A stretch of 64,000 nucleotides of DNA from Thalia democratica (lineage: Eukaryota): assembly GCA_965202585.1 (NCBI GenBank), contig CBDBBG010000090.1, positions 1 to 64,000 of the forward strand. The letters are read 5' to 3'. The notes under the pieces are model-generated. The model did not search any database, was not told where the DNA came from, and saw only the letters and a list, made by a program, of their open reading frames with translations. The position numbers were made by a program, and so were the translations under genes. Positions 30,225-61,360 of the stretch are shown one piece after another. Within the stretch, counting starts at the first letter, position 1, and each line of letters begins with the position of its first letter.

Positions 30225-30237
30225 CTATTTGAATAAG
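30225..30237 (+). other. Spliced-leader-like sequence CTATTTGAATAAG at the LINE 5' end
   Basis: Identical to the 3' 13 nt of the Ciona SL exon ATTCTATTTGAATAAG, 22 nt upstream of the ORF1 ATG. Confidence 0.6.
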
Positions 30238-30259
30238 GTTTTGTAATTTAAAAAAGTAA

Positions 30260-31153
30260 ATGTCTATTGAAGCTGAAATTAAAGCATTGGTTGAGTCCTC
30301 CAAAATTGGGAAACAGCTGAAAGAAAAACTGATTGCTATTGGAAGTAAGAAGGACAATGAATTTAGTTGTTTTCAAGCTGAGATGCTTAAATTGAAGGAA
30401 GATTATAATGAAAAAAGTAGAATTATTGAAAATAACATTGATCAGATTCAAAAAGATGAATTCAGCAGTAAGAGAATAGACAATATAGAAAATAGAATTA
30501 CAGAATTACAAAAAAGTTTCTCAGAATTTAAGTCTGATTTTACTTCTAAATTTAACAAGTTTGAAGCTAAATTCTCCAAATATGCTGATGCTATGCAGAA
30601 AAGTGAACCAACAGAAATTATCACAAACATTAGTACCAAATTAAATTTAGTAGCAGAAAAAATAGATGCTGAAAATGAACAAAAACTGAAAGAAAAAAAA
30701 GCTTTAAATGTAATAATATTTAACATTCCAGAAAGTAAAAATCCAACTCATAATGCACTAGAAAGTTGCAAAAATGATCTAAAAATTATTCAACAAGTAT
30801 TAGGAGAAAATAAAATGAAAAAAGAAGAGTTTAAGTCACTTTATCGAGTTGGTAAAATTGCAGCTAACAAAATCAGACCAATTATAGTCAAATTAAATAA
30901 TTTAGCATCCAAACACAGACTGTTAAGACTGAGAGATTTGAAAATGTTTAATGGTGAAATTGAATCAAAAATCTACATCAATCCTGACAGAACTCTCTTG
31001 GAAATTGAAGCTTTCAGAACATTGAGAAAAGAAGTTAAAATAAAGCAAGCCATCGCTGATGAGAATAAATTGGACATAAAATATGTTATAAGGAACAACA
31101 AAATAGTTGAACTGACAAAACAGCCCTTTCGTTACCGCTCCCAGGACATCTGA
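30260..31153 (+). CDS. LINE ORF1p (coiled coil plus RRM/CTD-like)
   Basis: 297 aa; N-terminal heptad-rich region; LNVIIFNIPES, YRVGK..RPIIVKL and IYINPDRT motifs typical of CR1/L2/Jockey-group ORF1. Confidence 0.9.
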   Translation: MSIEAEIKALVESSKIGKQLKEKLIAIGSKKDNEFSCFQAEMLKLKEDYNEKSRIIENNIDQIQKDEFSSKRIDNIENRITELQKSFSEFKSDFTSKFNKFEAKFSKYADAMQKSEPTEIITNISTKLNLVAEKIDAENEQKLKEKKALNVIIFNIPESKNPTHNALESCKNDLKIIQQVLGENKMKKEEFKSLYRVGKIAANKIRPIIVKLNNLASKHRLLRLRDLKMFNGEIESKIYINPDRTLLEIEAFRTLRKEVKIKQAIADENKLDIKYVIRNNKIVELTKQPFRYRSQDI

Positions 31154-34064
31154 GATTAGTGGAGGAAATCGTGAGTCAACGGGTATAAACTTATTAAGTG
31201 ATAGGATTAATTTTAACACTAACAAGTTTTCCTATATAAATTGTAACAAGAACTATTTAAAAGTTTGTTACACTAATATAAGATCTGTTATAAATAAATT
31301 TTATATTTTAGAGAACTATATAAATTTGAATAACATTGATTTATTTTTTCTTACTGAAACATGGTTGACTAATAATGTCAACGATGCCACAGTGTGTCTT
31401 TTTAACTATAACATTTACCGAAGTGATAGGTCTAGTAGGGGTGGAGGTGTTGCTATCCTTTTCAAAAATTCGCTTAAAGTTATTAAAGTTAAAAACGATT
31501 TTATCTCTACTAGCAACATCAATTTTGAATACCTATGTGTAGATGTAATTTTAAAAAAGATGAAGTTAAGATTTTGTTGTGTCTACCTTCCTCCACTGTC
31601 TGCTAGATGCGCACTGACTGTTCAAAATGTAATCAAAATGATTAAAATAGTTTTTCCAAAAGAGTGTTCTTTTTATGTTCTTGGTGATTTTAATATGCCA
31701 AATATAGATTGGAGGATTCCTAGCACAGATTTCAATAAACCCCATGAGTGTTTTCTTAATTTTTGTACAGACAATTTTTTAACCCACGTAATTGAAAATC
31801 CAACCCATAAGAATGGTAACATTCTCGATCTCATAATTTGCAATCATTTTGGTCTAGATAGAATCATATCACACTCAACTAATTTTCCATTAACAAACAC
31901 TTGTGATCATAACTTGCTTTCACTAACAATTAAAATTGAAAACAAAATAACACCTATTGCTAAAGACGTCTCATATGACTATAAAAAAGCAGATTTTGAA
32001 AACATCAATGATTTCCTTTCAAAAATTAATTGGACCTCTTTATTTAAAAATTCAAAAAATCTCCAGCATTTCTACGATCAATTCATTAGCTCAATCCAAA
32101 TCTCAATCAAACGTTTTGTTCCAATTTTTTCTAAAAATAACAAAAGTAAAAAATATCCATCTCATATTAAAAAGTTATTGAAAGAAAAAGTGAATCTATA
32201 CAAAAAAAGTAAGACAAATAAATCACTTTTGATAAAATACAAAAACAAGTCTAAAGAATATCAATTAGCTGTTAAAAAATACAACTTTGAATATGAAAAC
32301 AAATTCTGCAATAACACAAATTTTAAAAAGTTTTGTAGCTACGTGAAATCTAAACTTAAGTTAAATAATTCCATACATCTCTTATATGATAATGATAAAA
32401 ACAAAACAGTAACCTCAGATTTTGAAATAGCAACACTTTTTAACATAAATTTTCAAAAAGTTTTTAAAAAAGACGAGAGTTACCAGTCTTTTAAGCTACC
32501 CCAAAAGAATTGTAGTAAGATGCAAAATTTTTTCATAACCTATGAAGACATTATAAGTTCAATTAACCACTTAAAAGATAAAATCATAAGAACGCCAGAA
32601 AACATTCCACCCTATTATATCAAGCATGTTATCCAATCAATAATTTTTCCACTTTCATTAATATTTAATTGCTCTCTAGAACTATCTGATGTTCCTAAAC
32701 AATGGAAAACATCTTTTATTATTCCTGTGCACAAGAAAGGTAACATACACGATGCATTAAATTACAGACCAATATCTCTAACAAGTGGCTTTTCAAGAAT
32801 TTATGAACATATTGTATCTGTAAAAATTCTCAATCACCTCTTTGATAACAAATTATTAACTAACAAACAGTTTGGTTTTGTCCCAAACCGCTCATCAACC
32901 ATTCAACTGTTAACATGCTTACATTCTTGGTTAGTTCCTTATCTCAAAAATGAATTTACTAAAGTAGTTTATACGGATATTCAAAAAGCCTTTGATTCAG
33001 TATCACACAAAAGATTGTTAAAAATTTTAAATCAGTATGGGCTACATGAAAGCTTAATTGATTGGTTTGATAACTTTTTAAATAATAGATCACAAAGAGT
33101 ACTCATCAATAATACGCTTTCTGACTCTTTAACAATCTACAGTGGAGTACCACAAGGTGGTGTAGTTGGTCCCCTTCTCTTTTTAATTTATATTAATGAT
33201 ATTTGTTCAAACATTGATATTAAAAGTGAGTTAAGCTTATTTGCAGATGATGCCAAAATCTTTAGTCAATCAAATACTTCATTACAACTATCTTTAGATA
33301 ATATTTACATATGGTTAAAAACAAGAAAACTAAACTTAAATCCTAGCAAATGTAAAATTCTAACCATTAACAAAAAAGAATCTTCTCCAACTGACCTATT
33401 AATCAATAACATCAAGTTACCAGAAATTAAAGTTTTTAAAGATTTAGGAATTTATATTTCCAAAGATTTGAAATGCAATAAACATATCAACTATTTATAT
33501 AAGATTGCAAAAATTACATGTTATCAAATATTGAAAAGTTTTAAAACTAATTCTGCTTCAATTCTAACAAAACTATTTAAAACATACGTTCGCCCTAAAC
33601 TTGAGTTTAGTACCCAAATTTGGTCACCCCATTTAAAAAAGGATATTAACAAAATTGAATCTGTGCAAAGGAGTTTTACCCGTCATATTTGTAGTCGTTG
33701 CAACATATCTTACACGTCATATAATGGTAGAATGATTAAATTTGGCTTGAAATCACTAGAATATAGAAGATGGGAATTTGATTTATTAATTCTTTACAAA
33801 ATTATCAATGGCAAATATAAAAGTTTTTTTAACCAGTTTTTTAATTTTTCCCAAAATAATTATCAACTAAGAGGAAATAATTTGAAAATAAAATGTAAAC
33901 ATGATTTTCAAAACAGTCAGTGGCAAGGCGCATTTTTTCACAGAGCAAAAGCTATGTGGAACAGACTACCTCAGGATATAGTATCTTGTGAGAGGGTAGA
34001 ACAATTTCGTTTAAAGCTAAAAAGATTTGATTTAAATACGATAAATACCAGTAAAATTAACTAA
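31116..34064 (+). CDS. LINE ORF2p (APE endonuclease plus reverse transcriptase); no AUG before the endonuclease
   Basis: Frame open from 31116, overlapping ORF1; YTNIRS, LTETWL, GGGVAI, GDFN, CDH; QFGF, DIQKAFDSVSH, GVPQG, FADD; stop 34062-34064. The ORF-track start at 31326 is a TTG inside the endonuclease. Confidence 0.92.
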   Translation, partial: QNSPFVTAPRTSEISGGNRESTGINLLSDRINFNTNKFSYINCNKNYLKVCYTNIRSVINKFYILENYINLNNIDLFFLTETWLTNNVNDATVCLFNYNIYRSDRSSRGGGVAILFKNSLKVIKVKNDFISTSNINFEYLCVDVILKKMKLRFCCVYLPPLSARCALTVQNVIKMIKIVFPKECSFYVLGDFNMPNIDWRIPSTDFNKPHECFLNFCTDNFLTHVIENPTHKNGNILDLIICNHFGLDRIISHSTNFPLTNTCDHNLLSLTIKIENKITPIAKDVSYDYKKADFENINDFLSKINWTSLFKNSKNLQHFYDQFISSIQISIKRFVPIFSKNNKSKKYPSHIKKLLKEKVNLYKKSKTNKSLLIKYKNKSKEYQLAVKKYNFEYENKFCNNTNFKKFCSYVKSKLKLNNSIHLLYDNDKNKTVTSDFEIATLFNINFQKVFKKDESYQSFKLPQKNCSKMQNFFITYEDIISSINHLKDKIIRTPENIPPYYIKHVIQSIIFPLSLIFNCSLELSDVPKQWKTSFIIPVHKKGNIHDALNYRPISLTSGFSRIYEHIVSVKILNHLFDNKLLTNKQFGFVPNRSSTIQLLTCLHSWLVPYLKNEFTKVVYTDIQKAFDSVSHKRLLKILNQYGLHESLIDWFDNFLNNRSQRVLINNTLSDSLTIYSGVPQGGVVGPLLFLIYINDICSNIDIKSELSLFADDAKIFSQSNTSLQLSLDNIYIWLKTRKLNLNPSKCKILTINKKESSPTDLLINNIKLPEIKVFKDLGIYISKDLKCNKHINYLYKIAKITCYQILKSFKTNSASILTKLFKTYVRPKLEFSTQIWSPHLKKDINKIESVQRSFTRHICSRCNISYTSYNGRMIKFGLKSLEYRRWEFDLLILYKIINGKYKSFFNQFFNFSQNNYQLRGNNLKIKCKHDFQNSQWQGAFFHRAKAMWNRLPQDIVSCERVEQFRLKLKRFDLNTINTSKIN

Positions 34065-34384
34065 TTTTCCACTGTAACAAAAGGAAAAATATTCGTTTCC
34101 CTACGCCTCCCCCCTACAAACTATTAGTTTACTTAGATATTTTGTAGTTATGAATTTTGTTTTATAAGCCATGATTTTAGACAAACTTCTTTACTGTGTG
34201 TACTAAGTAATATATAAATTTGAATTTTTTGAACTGAATTTTCAATTTAGTTCATTTGTTTATGATATTGTGTTTAACTTTGTGTTTTCATTTAAATTAT
34301 GTTTGTATATATAAATATAATTTATCTTAAAGTTTTGAATATAAGTTTATTATCTTTTTCTCTTTTTGTGTGTCCTGTTTAAGT

Positions 34385-34408
34385 GGCTCAGGTTTTGATG
34401 CCTGAGTC
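34385..34408 (+). other. 3'-UTR stem-loop of the LINE (candidate RT recognition element)
   Basis: GGCTCAGG-TTTTGATG-CCTGAGTC: 8-bp stem with one G-U, just before AATAAA and the TAA tail, as known for CR1/L2 3' ends. Confidence 0.65.
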
Positions 34409-34659
34409 CAACATTGCACAATAAACAATATAATAATAATAATAACTTTAAATCTTAACTACTAGAATTATGCAGAAAACTATTAAACTCTTATAATAAA
34501 AAAAAATTTAATTGTGTTTAATGGACATACCTTTTTTTAATTTATAACTAAAAAAAAACTTAAACTTGTTCGTTAATAATTTTTTATACCTATATAAACG
34601 TTTAGGTCGCTATATATTTTGAGTTTAAATCAATATATTCATTGTACTTTACGAAAGTT

Positions 34660-36071
34660 TTAATACTGAGGCATTTTAGCACATGAGAAACAAAAAAGAG
34701 TATTAGTAGCATCACATGATTCTTCAGACCATTCATCTTTATCAACATCATAACAAACAACTGATGAACGTAATTCTTGAAATATCTTAATTTTATTTCC
34801 GATTGACATAGCTCTACTTAAATGTAAATTGTAAGATGGCTTAAGAGCAACAAATTCCTTACAAACTTTGTCAAATACTTCACAATTGTTATTACGATAA
34901 CCAATAACAAACAATTTATCTTTTATAACAACTAAACTGTGATTAATTTGATTATTTATCATACTGGGCATTCTAGACCATTTATCACCGAATACATCAT
35001 AAGATTCTACTGTGTTTAAATAATTATTATCATTATCCATTCCACCTGAAACAACAATATTTCCTTGAAAAACTACGGAAGCTGGTAAATCTCTTGATTC
35101 ATTCATTCTAGAAACTTGTTTCAGGCTTTTGTCTTTTGTATTAAATCGCAAACAAGAATTCGTTACTATCACTTCATAATCATCATCATACCAGTGTCCA
35201 CCAACGATAAATATTTCATTCATAAATGCACAAGTACAAAAATGTTCACGTTCATCAACCATATTAGTTACTACAGTCCATTCATTAGTAGCAGGTGAAT
35301 ATTTTTCGACTAATTTTATTAATTTATCAGAATTATCATAACCACCAAACATATAAAGTTCTCTTTTGAAACAAACAGCTTCAAAGTATGCTCTACATTC
35401 ATTCATTGAAACAAGGTCCTTCGCATTATTCATGTTACTTCCATCAATTTGTTCTATTTTACTTAATGTTTTATTTGATCTATTGACATAATTTCCACAA
35501 ATTAACAAGTCAAAATTACTTTGGTTACAATACCTCTTTGTGTAAAAAATGTTTGACTTGTTTTTAAAGCAGTTCTTGGCTGCCAAATCTTCTTTTAAAA
35601 TGATGACACTTTTACAGTTATCAGTAATTGATGAAATTTTATCTATAATATATTTCAATGCATGCTCTGACAGCAAAGGAAGTCTGACTTTTAGTAACAA
35701 TTGTTTTGCATATTTGCTACGTTCTTCAAAGTTAAATTTCAACCAAGTAATTGATGCATTGAAGATTTCAACTTCTGAGTGAATATTCAACTCAGAACTT
35801 GCAAGTATTTTTTCAACAAGACTAAAGTCTAATTGTAAAAAGTTTTGAGTTTCAATTACCATTGAAAAACAACGTTGAATATAAAGCAAGGATGACTCAG
35901 AAATAGTTGCTAGGTTGTAACATTTAGCTAAACTATAAAATGCAACAACATTTTTAACTCTTAATTTGTCTTGAATGACTTTGCTTATCTTAATAATTGT
36001 ATCCTCTTTTTGTAGAATCTTATTCAATTCTAAAGCTAAAACTATGTTATTTTCTTCCATACTTGGTACAT
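34660..36071 (-). CDS. Kelch-like protein exon 2 (end of degenerate BTB, BACK, Kelch repeats)
   Basis: Intact frame; acceptor ttgttttag at 36073-36072, phase 1 (G|AT); BACK motifs (NVVAFY, SEVEIFNASITWL, VRLPLL) and GG-type Kelch repeats (LYMFGG, IFIVGG, IVVSGG). Confidence 0.92.
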
Positions 36072-36836
36072 CTAAAACAAAATTAATAGGTATAAATATT
36101 ATCTTTGTAAAATTGCTTAGAATTATTGATACATTTTAAGACCTAGAAACATGGTTGCCACTCAAAAAGCTGAGAAGAATTTCCTGACTTTTCCTGACTT
36201 TTTCCTGACTTTTTACAAAAGTTTTCCTGACTTTTCTAAATCAAACTCTTTAATTAGACTTATTCTAAAATACATAATCTAACACTTAAAACTATATAAA
36301 ACTTCCAATCTAACTTTAATACAGGTTAAAAACAACAGTTTTTCGCTGAATTCTATAATCAAACTTCCAGTACATCACTTAAACCATCTGTGTATGATTG
36401 ATGTTTGTAATAAACAGCTCTATCAGCAAAATTCTTGTATTTTTACCTTATAAACACAGCTTGTTTGAAAAACGAAACAATTTTTTAGCAAATCCTAGCA
36501 TAAATGTATCTAGATAAACAAACTACATATAAGGAACTTTTACAATTAAAACTTTGAATTAATAACGAACTTTCACAACTAAAATCTTAAAACAATAACA
36601 AATTTTTACAGTTGAAACCTTAAAACAATAAAGAACACAATTTTTTAGAATTTTGTAGTATAAATGTATCTAAATGAACGAAACGACATATAAGGAACTT
36701 TTACAATTAAAACCTTAAATTAATAAGGAACTATCACAACTCAAACCTTAAAACAATAACGAACTTTTACAGTTAAAACAAAAAAACAATAAAGAAATTA
36801 ATCAAATACTGTTTTTTTAAATTTATGTACTAAAAT

Positions 36837-57730: not shown

Positions 57731-58009
57731 CTGTTAATGAGTGAAAATAAGGTTATTACTTGAATACAAATAATCTTTTACATATTCATAATTTGTATTT
57801 ATTTATTTATATCGTCATTTTAATCTTAAGAAATTTAATTTATATTTATGCTTGATCATAACGATACGGATAAGATAAACACGATTGAAATAATAAGTTA
57901 TTAAACATGTTTCAAAAAACTTAAAACACACTAACATAAGAAAAAATCTTCATATGTTTAAGTTATTATTAACAATAAAGTAGATGAGCATTAAAAAAAA
58001 ATCACTCAC

Positions 58010-59455
58010 TATCAATAATATCCATCAGATCATCTAAAAGTGAATCTTCATCATTAATTTCGTTGTTTATATAATTACTTTGGGTATTTACTGATGTAAA
58101 TGCAGTTTCTTTACTTGGATTATTGAAAACAGGATCATTATTTGTCTCCATGTAATTGTGATGACCCTCATGGTCAATCTGTGGTAAACTTAAATTATTT
58201 TTATTACTAAACAATACCCCACTTCTATGACTTCCATTGTTGTTTTTAATAGTGAGTTCTCGTAGTTCTTTGCTATTGTCTGATTCTAGCTGATTTCTTG
58301 GTTTCTTAAAGCTTGTGCTTTGATCATCAACTAAGTTATTTTTACTCTTTTTATATCTTTGATGTTTAAACCAATTATTAATTTTTACTATATCCACCCC
58401 AAGATCTATGCTAATTCTTTTCCTATCATCTAAACTTGGGTTTTTGCATTTTTCATACTCCATTTTCAAAATGGCTGTATCATCACAAGAAAACTTTTTA
58501 TACTTTTTTTGTTTAGAATAGTTTCTTCCTCCTGCTCTTTTAGACATGAACCAAAAATGTACTCTGAGCGCATAAACGCCAAGCTCTTTGCTAATTCTTA
58601 ACTTCTCTTCAGTACTTGGATACTTACATTTTTCATACTCCCTCTCCAAAAATTTTATCTCTTCAGAAGAAAAAGGTATATGCTTTTGTTTTCCATCGTT
58701 CTTCTTTTCTTTACAACTAGTATCTAGTTCTTTATTCGCATTGTAACGTCTATTGTAAAACCACTTGTATATTGTTATAACATCTATACCTAAATCACTG
58801 CTCAGTTTTTCTATTTCTTCTCTGTTAAGTTTCTTGTTAACTTTTAAAACCATATCAAGGGCTTCTTGCTGATATTGGTTAAAATATTTTTTTGAAGCGG
58901 ACTGAGCACGTCTACTTTTGAAGTATTTGTTTGTGTCATTTACGTCTAATTCTAAATCATTGCTAAGTTTTTCTATTTCTTCTCTGTTTGGCCTATGGTT
59001 TGTATTGAAAAACATATCAAGCTTTTCTCGCTTGTTTTGGTTAATTATTTTATTAGAAGTGTTACTTTTTCTCTTAAGGCTCTGTCTTTTGTTATTAAAC
59101 CATGTTTTTAAAGATTTTTCCGTTCGTTTTGTCTTAAGACTCAAACTTTTGATGTCTATTTTGCTAGGTTTGGATTTTTGTTTGAAAAAATCTTTCAAAA
59201 TTTTTTCTTGCCATGGTTTCAATGTTATATGTTCGTTGTGTTTTACTGTTTCTTCTTGCACTAGAGGTTGGTATTCAGTTTCTGTTCCTTTGTTTGAAGT
59301 ACTTGACAATGCTTGACTTACTTGAACACCTGGAAAATTATGAAGTTTGTTAGAAGTTGTCTGATCTACACATATCAAGGAAGAAGGCAAATAACTTATT
59401 TCTGGTATTAATTTGTCATCCGCTTTAGACTGACTGCTATCTGTGCTGCATGATC
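58010..59455 (-). CDS. Internal exon encoding five tandem divergent homeodomains
   Basis: Helix-3 motifs WFNNKR, YFKSRR, WFYNRR, WFMSKR and WFKHQR, each preceded by F..-L..-P/L-..-LS..LG spacing; acceptor tatatag 59457-59456 (phase 1); donor A|GTGAGT at 58009. No in-frame ATG before HD2, so an upstream exon is required. Confidence 0.88.
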
Positions 59456-59530
59456 CTATATATTAAATAAATAATCAGTTGATTGCCATACAGTGAAGTA
59501 TTTAAAATTTTAAAAAATATTGATTTAAAC

Positions 59531-59630
59531 NNNNNNNNNNNNNNNNNNNNNNNNNNNNNNNNNNNNNNNNNNNNNNNNNNNNNNNNNNNNNNNNNNNNNN
59601 NNNNNNNNNNNNNNNNNNNNNNNNNNNNNN
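59531..59630. other. Assembly gap (100 N)
   Basis: Run of N. Confidence 1.
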
Positions 59631-59687
59631 ACTGATTCAAAAACATCAAAATTCTCATTTGAAAACATTTAATCAAGAGCATTCAGT

Positions 59688-61187
59688 TCATGACTTTTGG
59701 TCTTCCTTCATAAGTGGCTTGTAAAGCACGTCCCTAATACTATTGGAACCAGTCAGCAGCATCAGCAACCTGTCAACTCCCAACCCCCATCCAGCGCAAG
59801 GAGGCAGTCCGTACTCAAGAGCAACACAGAAATCCTCATCATGCTTCACTGCTTCCTCATCCCCCAACTCCTTCATTTCCACCTGTCTCATGAACATATC
59901 CCTCTGAACAACAGGATCGTTCTGCTCAGTGTAGCAGTTCACCATTTCCATACCCTCTATATACAATTCAAATCTCTCAGAGACCCCTGGCCTGTCCTTG
60001 CATTCTTTTGCCAGTGGGCTCATCACATGGGGGTGGTTTGTGATGAAAGTGGGTTTTGTTAAGTTTTTGACAATAAAGTGGTCACAGAGTTTGTCTAGCA
60101 TCCTTGATGTGGTCTGAGGTTCAGGGCAGCTCACGGAATGGATCTGGCAGATTTCTAAAAGTCTTGTTCTGGATTCTTCTGTATGAAGTTCTTTTGGATC
60201 TGGTAGTTTGACGCCCATTTGTTTCTCCAGTTCAGGCATCATGTCAACTCTTTCAAAAGGAGTTTCAAGGTTATACTCTGGGCGGATTTCTTTGAAAATT
60301 CTAGCAAAGAGTTCTTCTGTCATGTGCATCAAATCATGGTAATCAGAATAAGCTTTGTAAGCCTCGCAAATTGTGAACTCTGGATTGTGTGATTTGTCCG
60401 CGCTCTCATTCCTGAAAACCTTGCCAATCTCAAAAACCCTATCAAATCCACCTACTAACATTTCTTTCAACCTCAGTTCAGGTGAGACTCTGTTGTACAG
60501 GTTCATCTTGAGGTCGTTGTGGAAAGTTTGGAAAGGTTTTGCTGCTGCTCCGCTTGCCACAGTTGACAGAATAGGAGTGGAGACTTCACTGAAGTTTTCC
60601 TTGTTGAAAAAATCACGGATTATTGAATTGAGTTTGGTTGGCACCAGCATTTTCTCATAAGAGGACTTGTTGACAATGGTGTCCAAGTACCTCTGCCTGT
60701 CTCTCAGTTCCTTGTTCTCCAGCTGTTCAGGTATGACCCTGGTGCAAGGAGCCAGCAGTTCAAGTTGATGGGGTATTATGCTCAACTCACCCATTTTTGA
60801 CTTTGCAGCAAAACCGCTGACTCCAATGTGATCACCACGCTTTATTTTGTCAACATCTGTGTGGAAGTCGTCTTCAGATTTGTACCAACTGCAGTTTGCC
60901 ATCACCTGCAACTTGTGATTGTTTGACTTGATGGTGTAAAAAATTAGCTTCTTGCCAGCCTTTCTCACCGACATGACTCTGCCTGCCAACTTGCACTTTT
61001 CTTCAAAAAGTTTGTCCCCGCTTTTTGTCATGTTATCATATTTGCAAATGTAGTCTTGTATTGAGTGTGAGCATGAGAATTTGTTGGAGTAGGGATTCAC
61101 ACCTTGCTGCTTCATTTGTGATATTTGCTTGCTTCTTTCAATGTGGTAAACTTTTGCTTTGTCAAGGATGTCATCTTTGGTGGTTAC
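59688..61187 (-). CDS. KARS1: Class II lysyl-tRNA synthetase, eukaryotic cytosolic type, divergent, single 1.5-kb exon
   Basis: OB-fold (AGRVMSVRKAGKKLIFY, LQVMAN, GELSIIP), GAAAKPF.T.HNDL, motif 2 FEIGKVFRNE..HNPEFT.CE.Y, MSPLAK, ERFEL, motif 3 LEYGLPP.AGWGLGVDRL. Frame extends 24 codons above the ATG to acceptor ttttatttaag (61189-61188). Symbol denotes family, not proven orthology. Confidence 0.93.
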   Translation of the reverse strand, partial: VTTKDDILDKAKVYHIERSKQISQMKQQGVNPYSNKFSCSHSIQDYICKYDNMTKSGDKLFEEKCKLAGRVMSVRKAGKKLIFYTIKSNNHKLQVMANCSWYKSEDDFHTDVDKIKRGDHIGVSGFAAKSKMGELSIIPHQLELLAPCTRVIPEQLENKELRDRQRYLDTIVNKSSYEKMLVPTKLNSIIRDFFNKENFSEVSTPILSTVASGAAAKPFQTFHNDLKMNLYNRVSPELRLKEMLVGGFDRVFEIGKVFRNESADKSHNPEFTICEAYKAYSDYHDLMHMTEELFARIFKEIRPEYNLETPFERVDMMPELEKQMGVKLPDPKELHTEESRTRLLEICQIHSVSCPEPQTTSRMLDKLCDHFIVKNLTKPTFITNHPHVMSPLAKECKDRPGVSERFELYIEGMEMVNCYTEQNDPVVQRDMFMRQVEMKELGDEEAVKHDEDFCVALEYGLPPCAGWGLGVDRLLMLLTGSNSIRDVLYKPLMKEDQKS

Positions 61188-61360
61188 CTTAAATAAAATA
61201 AAACCACTTTGTATTTGTTAGAGTTAATTAACTTGTACTAATTAACAAGCTCATACTTGAAACATCTTTTTAAGCTAAACTGGTATTTTTTGGCTTTGAG
61301 GAAATTCATTACAAAAAAAGAAGTTAGCTTATTTTCAGAATTTAAATTTGCAAACATAGT

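Follow-up and report, generated by a model that had tools for sequence, protein, structure and literature searches.

The element and its surroundings

The window, that is the whole stretch of 64,000 nucleotides analysed here, contains between positions 30225 and 34445 an intact, high-copy and young APE-type LINE (non-LTR retrotransposon), the features of which are listed in Table 1. Its ORF2 comprises an APE endonuclease and a reverse transcriptase (RT), with PF03372, PF14529 and PF00078 all scoring above cut-off, and the other features of a LINE were present as well: an ORF1 RNA-binding protein, dispersed near-identical copies and a simple-repeat 3' end. We take this Thalia democratica LINE to be probably of the CR1 type, going by its RT motifs and by the ORF1 type in PMC4120745. 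The family of the element, hereafter family A, numbers 541 candidate copies in the 802-Mb genome; all 40 scored matches were copies of it, and the 39 others were 98% identical over the ORF1/ORF2 junction. In an AlphaFold model the ORF1 protein (ORF1p) consists of a coiled coil, an RRM and a CTD, with human L1 ORF1p as the best Foldseek matches (E 6e-6). No PHD finger was matched in ORF1 of this genome's family; one is present in 21 of 58 distant ORF1 relatives, which have the order PHD, coiled coil and RRM-CTD.

In families A, B and D, full-length copies (L003, L005, L011, L024, L027, L063-L081, and window positions 30225-30259) begin with a few common leader variants ending in AAG. These are sometimes stacked with short relics and are joined at one point to family-specific sequence, only ~20-30 nt ahead of the ORF1 AUG. 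Such 5' ends resemble spliced leaders that returned to the genome with the element in successive rounds of copying, in which case the elements would need no internal promoter. Spliced leaders have been reported on Hydra CR1 transcripts (10.1101/2024.03.13.584568).

Three other open frames of the window, all on the minus strand, were noted. A single 491-aa frame (34660-36135), in which BACK and Kelch domains were matched, ends ~200 nt from the 3' end of the LINE. Further along, a 509-aa class II (D/K/N) tRNA synthetase frame (59688-61217) is followed 225 nt downstream by a 486-aa frame with five homeodomain matches (58002-59462), and because of this tight spacing the pair, at 58002-61217, could be an operon.

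Table 1. Features of the LINE and of its ORF1/ORF2 junction, in window coordinates
Feature	Positions	Strand	Remarks
Leader-like 5' end, candidate trans-spliced leader	30225..30237	+	Common to full-length copies of families A, B and D
ORF1, 297 aa (299 aa in the family)	30260..31153	+	Coiled coil, RRM and CTD; L1 ORF1p fold
Last ORF2-frame stop upstream (TGA)	31113..31115	+	4-7 open codons before UUC in 7/7 families
ORF2 open frame, 982 codons	31116..34064	+	Variable linker; APE endonuclease from ~31269; RT ~32730-33380; first AUG 31560
Candidate +1 shift site CCC-UUU-CGU	31124..31132	+	P-site UUU 31127-31129, which would re-pair to UUC 31128-31130
Spacer of 6 nt, CGN codon to stem	31133..31138	+	Six residues from R to W in 47/54 PF[RQ] proteins
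Predicted GC-rich hairpin, 6 bp with 5-nt loop	31139..31155	+	G>A at 31153 in this copy breaks one pair
ORF1 stop	31151..31159	+	TGA 31151-31153 here; TAG 31157-31159 in 28/29 other copies
3' UTR	34065..34445	+	Short (AAT)n run at the end, 34431-34445; read directly in this copy

Layout of the ORF1/ORF2 junction

The original prediction had placed ORF2 in the +1 frame relative to ORF1, with CCC-UUU-CGU read in the ORF1 frame within the overlap and no ORF2 AUG before the endonuclease, and all three points held on re-analysis (Table 1). The first AUG is residue 149 of the open frame, 97 codons past the first motif of the endonuclease. The overlap of 38 nt given at the time is correct for this copy and peculiar to it. 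A G occupies position 31153 in 28 of the 29 other aligned copies, where the downstream TAG ends ORF1 after 299 aa and the overlap measures 44 nt; the family ORF1 is therefore two residues longer than that of the copy in the window. All 29 keep CCCTTTCGT. The G>A change at 31153, common to this copy and L015, ends ORF1 two residues early and alters one codon of the ORF2 frame.

Because of the TGA that closes the ORF2 frame upstream (Table 1), ORF2 can be entered only within the overlap or downstream of it. An assembly error at the junction was ruled out, since the junction is the same in 29/29 other copies except at position 31153. A -1 shift was likewise ruled out: in the -1 frame, stops follow the site closely, and in intact copies this frame does not lead into the endonuclease. 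Overlap indels place ORF1 and ORF2 in one frame in four copies (L202, L208, L223 and L225), two of which had been picked for their long open frames; none of the four represents an amplified subfamily among the loci fetched, and they were left out of the evidence.

The UUU-CGN site in seven families

Diverged ORF1 proteins used as queries retrieved six further families (B-G) from the same genome. The query proteins for B-E are 47-58% identical to family A in ORF1, and the representatives of C, F and G are degraded copies. Conservation of UUU-CG in relatives, proposed from the outset as a check, was found at the same place in 7/7 families of this genome, with TTT followed by CGT, CGA or CGG, that is by three different CGN codons. 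When alignments were anchored upstream of the motif, TTTCGN stood at the anchor in 106/116 distinct contexts; among the other 10, three were anchor offsets with the motif present and seven had one change in CG, five of them of the CpG type. UUU_CGN lies in the zero frame, with the +1 frame open from UUC onward, as at the PA-X and amalgavirus sites. The codon that would occupy the E site is CCC in A, D, E and G, CCA in F and CTT in B and C, and never UCC; with CTT and CCA in these families, CCC before UUU is not required.

From the codon counts of ORF2 (59 TTT and 7 CGN in 935 codons), an in-frame TTT-CGN is expected ~0.006 times per 12 codons, a low estimate because the overlap is GC-richer than ORF2. 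In the C-terminal halves of ORF1, CGN accounts for 12/65 Arg codons, against 7/7 families at the site. Two controls bear on how these figures are to be read: TTT makes up 59/66 Phe codons in ORF2 and is the background codon, and another invariant Arg upstream is CGN in 4/5 families, so that the codon class has some inertia.

In every family a stop shuts the +1 frame 4-7 codons ahead of the site, and the ORF1 stop follows 10 codons downstream. The ORF2 frame is +1 to ORF1 wherever the endonuclease can be traced, and no AUG precedes it in families A, B, D and E. No near-cognate start codon is common to all seven families. Relatives lacking the motif, or having an ORF2 AUG, had been named in advance as counter-evidence; the first kind did not turn up among the seven families, whereas AUGs were found in C and in some B copies, which speaks in part against the prediction. 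In family C (L154/L061, L194) the overlap contains ATG ATG in the +1 frame, 8 codons before the ORF1 stop, and the B-subfamily copies L064/L201 have one +1-frame ATG in the overlap. The B/C clade (L061/L154, L194, L064) combines CTT before TTT with a mismatched closing pair in the stem described below and with +1 AUGs that come and go, and it may be relaxing or switching its route of entry into ORF2.

A predicted hairpin downstream of the site

The candidate frameshift signal as first described was incomplete, in that it missed a conserved hairpin predicted 6 nt downstream of the site (Table 1) and did not show how widely the signal occurs. Over the 12 junction codons GC3 is 0.42-0.75, up from 0.22-0.26 in the body of ORF1. 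When all windows across 540 nt on the upstream side and 560 nt on the downstream side are compared with it, the 20-nt stem window is the most stable in 5/7 families. Depending on the family, the closing pair is U-A, G-C or A-U; it is mismatched in B and C, and in D the pairing is displaced by one base. Against dinucleotide shuffles the folding z-scores were weak, from -0.17 to -2.36, with +1.16 for the 60-mer of the copy in the window, and covariation of the stem over eight DNA rows was not significant (64/500 shuffles as high).

Distant ORF1 proteins

More distant relatives were represented by 150 cluster representatives, many of them fragments, from which 70 with an F-x7-W end were selected by requiring the F and the W. 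These families were tested as proteins only, their RNA-level features being inferred from residues. The typical end of the 70 proteins is PFRxxPQxxWG. The residue after F is R in 64, Q in 4, L in 1 and K in 1, and Pro precedes F in 63/70. The spacing from F to the putative stem is fixed (Table 1), and ORF1 stops 0-42 residues past W, at least 10 residues past it in 7/70; a fixed spacing combined with a variable stop distance fits a signal that is independent of the stop.

Pairing between the two stem arms would require base 1 of the codon at P to be complementary to base 2 of the codon that follows W. The residues combine as P-G, A-A, S-D/E or T-V in 52/63 testable rows, against 35.1 in shuffled rows (p 2e-5), and complementarity ranks first of the 24 possible mappings. 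By our own count on a 72-row tree (two too-short rows omitted), the pairing switches at ~11 separate places, to A-A at 4, to S-D/E at 5 and to T-V at 2. The exceptions among the distant rows are P-D, P-A, P-N, T-D, A-D and T-G. A tree-aware covariation test, with only four well-supported pairs, was not significant (median p 0.25). One distant clade of ORF1 proteins (P0123, P0131, P0156) ends in FRxxAxKxWA; A-A pairing is kept there and the stem interior has diverged.

The residues also bear on the +1 frame. Per codon, the expected rate of +1 stops in the 70 proteins drops from 0.092 in the body to 0.008 in the motif, with a value of 0.026 for the tails after W, and the -1 stop rate in the tails is unchanged (0.122 vs 0.114). 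Stops forced in the +1 frame number 54 in 6898 body residues versus 0 in 978. The tails past W are clear of +1 stops in comparison with body windows (p 0.0005), an effect mostly of composition (shuffle p ~0.1). A +1 stop is possible at F-6 in 52/70 proteins; residue pairs that allow one are common up to F-5 and almost absent from F-4 onward. From F-5 to the end of ORF1, no +1 AUG is possible in 55/70.

Pattern scans added no further junctions. A degenerate pattern matched 24 loci in metagenome contigs, none of them a LINE junction; viral and prokaryote contigs gave 0 matches; the NGKI pattern gave one match in the genome of T. democratica itself, which was not junction-like; and a search for homologues of the ORF2 N-terminus returned seven proteins, none informative on the overlap.

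Proposed route to ORF2

The DNA itself displays the layout of the junction, the absent AUG, the +1 frame closed upstream, the conserved site and a complementary stem. We propose, with a probability of about two in three, that the ORF2 protein is made as a rare ORF1-ORF2 fusion through a programmed +1 frameshift at UUU-CGN, likely aided by the predicted hairpin. A fusion by +1 frameshift had been put forward in the original prediction, and it gains comparative support from a site in 7/7 families and a +1 frame in each traceable case. With CGN awaiting decoding in the A site, the P-site tRNA-Phe would slip from UUU onto UUC. A hairpin 6 nt downstream would be placed close to the mRNA entry channel, and its spacing suggests that it may pause the ribosome there. 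If a few percent of ribosomes or less were to shift, much ORF1p and little fusion would result, the latter consisting of ~290 residues from ORF1, a linker that varies between 47 and 74 codons, and the endonuclease and RT (EN-RT). The PFRxxPQxxWG end of the wide clade with PHD/L1-type ORF1 would then be, as we infer from its residues, largely a read-out of the RNA signal.

Alternative routes

The alternative that best withstands the data, and which we nevertheless consider unlikely, is termination-reinitiation, or internal initiation, at a non-AUG codon or an occasional AUG near the ORF1 stop, with the hairpin and UGGG(A) acting as a TURBS-like or positioning element and UUU-CGN as a passenger. 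Reinitiation independent of AUG is known for L1 (PMC1965478, PMC5009743), and human L1 ORF2 accepts any sense codon in place of AUG (PMC1965478, citing the primary paper). The stop-restart coupling of SART1 involves RNA structure, and the calicivirus TURBS has a UGGGA core and tolerates non-AUG starts (both PMC5972666). In our families UGGGA stands immediately before the stop in A, B and C, an ATT overlapping the stop occurs in these three and in F, and family C has its AUGs 8 codons ahead of the stop. However, an AUG at or overlapping the ORF1 stop, as in stop-restart, was seen in none of the seven families, those of C lying 8 codons upstream, and ATT is missing in D, E and G. UGGG(A) is one arm of the stem and becomes UGGGC, UGGGG or GGGU along with its partner; UGGGA was neither invariant nor at a constant distance from the stop, since it occurs in A, B and C only and the distance varies from 0 to 42 residues. 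The F-to-stem spacing does not change, even though the stop position differs by up to 42 residues. In the distant proteins the +1 frame opens at F-4 and is open through the overlap, which a restart at the stop would not need, and the conservation of Phe-Arg would be left unexplained.

It is improbable that PFRxxPQxxWG is simply a protein motif of ORF1p, its codons and stem being by-products and ORF2 being reached by another route. In favour of a protein role of the ORF1 tail, the AlphaFold model gives it a pLDDT of 77-81, with a short helix at 294-298; other ORF1 arginines are equally invariant (41/41 in the RP motif), and the codon class persists at control Arg sites. The jump in GC3, the covariation following a base-pair code at two positions five residues apart, and the one-sided loss of +1 stop potential are not explained by such a role.

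A third explanation, by which the pyrimidine-rich stretch ending in CAG at 31142-31144 is a splice acceptor and ORF2 mRNA arises by cis-splicing or by trans-splicing of a spliced leader, is very improbable and was rejected: the stretch does resemble a 3' splice site and the 5' ends of the elements look trans-spliced, as reported for Hydra CR1 transcripts (10.1101/2024.03.13.584568), but family D has CTG in place of CAG, one genomic match with altered bases just upstream of the AG is an unspliced copy (vs 158 intact contexts), no leader junction lies in the 30 nt upstream of 31162, four RNA runs showed no joints and one of their contigs spans the junction gap-free (weak evidence, drawn from contigs with patchy cover), and a leader-joined RNA would still be without an AUG.

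Relation to known systems

Sites of the UUU-CGN class are already known, and UUU_C slippage has been shown by mass spectrometry, at ~1%, for influenza PA-X (PMC3498833) and for PLEKHM2 (10.1101/2024.08.30.610563). In PA-X, UCC_UUU_CGU likewise has a zero-frame UUU-CGN core, a second ORF in +1 and a possible P-site slip from UUU to UUC, and replacement of UCC by CCC lowered shifting without abolishing it (PMC3498833). The LINE site differs in that it belongs to a non-LTR retrotransposon and precedes the ORF1 stop by 10 codons, and its product would be the essential EN-RT; it also has a conserved predicted hairpin, whereas no stimulators are evident in PA-X in the account given by PMC5009743. 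Amalgaviruses share a coiled-coil-rich ORF1 fused to a +1 polymerase and several CGN codons at UUU_CGN, with a tRNA-Phe slip from UUU to UUC proposed (PMC5052127); they are dsRNA viruses with overlaps of 287-968 nt (PMC5052127), against 44-53 nt in the LINE families, which are retroelements. Human PLEKHM2 has a site of the same class, UCC_UUU_CGG, with ~1% shifting and a 3' stem-loop, but it is a cellular gene and the effect of its stem-loop was weak and not restored by compensatory changes (10.1101/2024.08.30.610563).

Among retrotransposons, the Gag-Pol +1 shift of Ty1/Ty3 likewise fuses the enzyme to ORF1/Gag (PMC5911963), although these are LTR elements and the Ty1 site is CUU_AGG_C (PMC5052127). 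The nearest non-LTR precedent is found in Dictyostelium TRE5-A/TRE3-A, APE-type elements that are said to need a frameshift, but of the -1 kind (PMC5911963). L1 and SART1 also have a bicistronic LINE RNA, an L1-type ORF1p fold and an ORF2 that is not translated by ordinary scanning (PMC5972666, PMC5009743); there the AUG lies at or after the ORF1 stop, whereas no AUG precedes the endonuclease in the four families with a traceable ORF2 start. ORF1 of CR1 subgroup 5 and L2 subgroup 6 consists of a PHD and a transposase 22 domain (PMC4120745), and the distant relatives, with PHD, coiled coil and RRM-CTD, resemble it in this respect, unlike the family of this genome with its lack of a PHD match. 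In the main text of PMC4120745 the words "overlap" and "frameshift" each occur 0 times. Our literature search, in the sections available and with subscription papers and Repbase notes outside its scope, found no UUU-CGN site or programmed +1 shift at a LINE ORF1/ORF2 junction, and the use of such a site there with a conserved stem is new as far as we found.

Significance

How LINE ORF2 is translated is a long-open question, for which the reviews consulted name reinitiation in L1 and SART1 and, as a claim, a -1 shift in TRE5-A, and not a UUU-CGN +1 shift. By a narrow balance of probability, a wide CR1-type clade may make its RT as a Gag-Pol-like fusion, by a PA-X-type +1 shift dependent on a conserved 3' hairpin, with PFRxxPQxxWG as an RNA signal read as protein. 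The candidate signal is ~35 nt long, which makes the claim directly testable, and many natural variants would be available on whether UUU-CGN shifting has a 3' stimulator. If the proposal is true, the PFRxxPQxxWG signal would be the first case of a UUU-CGN site whose stimulator has been conserved over deep divergence, and ORF2 annotations that start inside the endonuclease (e.g. P0194, P0195) would need correction. One LINE lineage would then set its ratio of ORF1p to ORF2p as Ty elements do, and the fusion would tie the enzyme to the ORF1p trimer.
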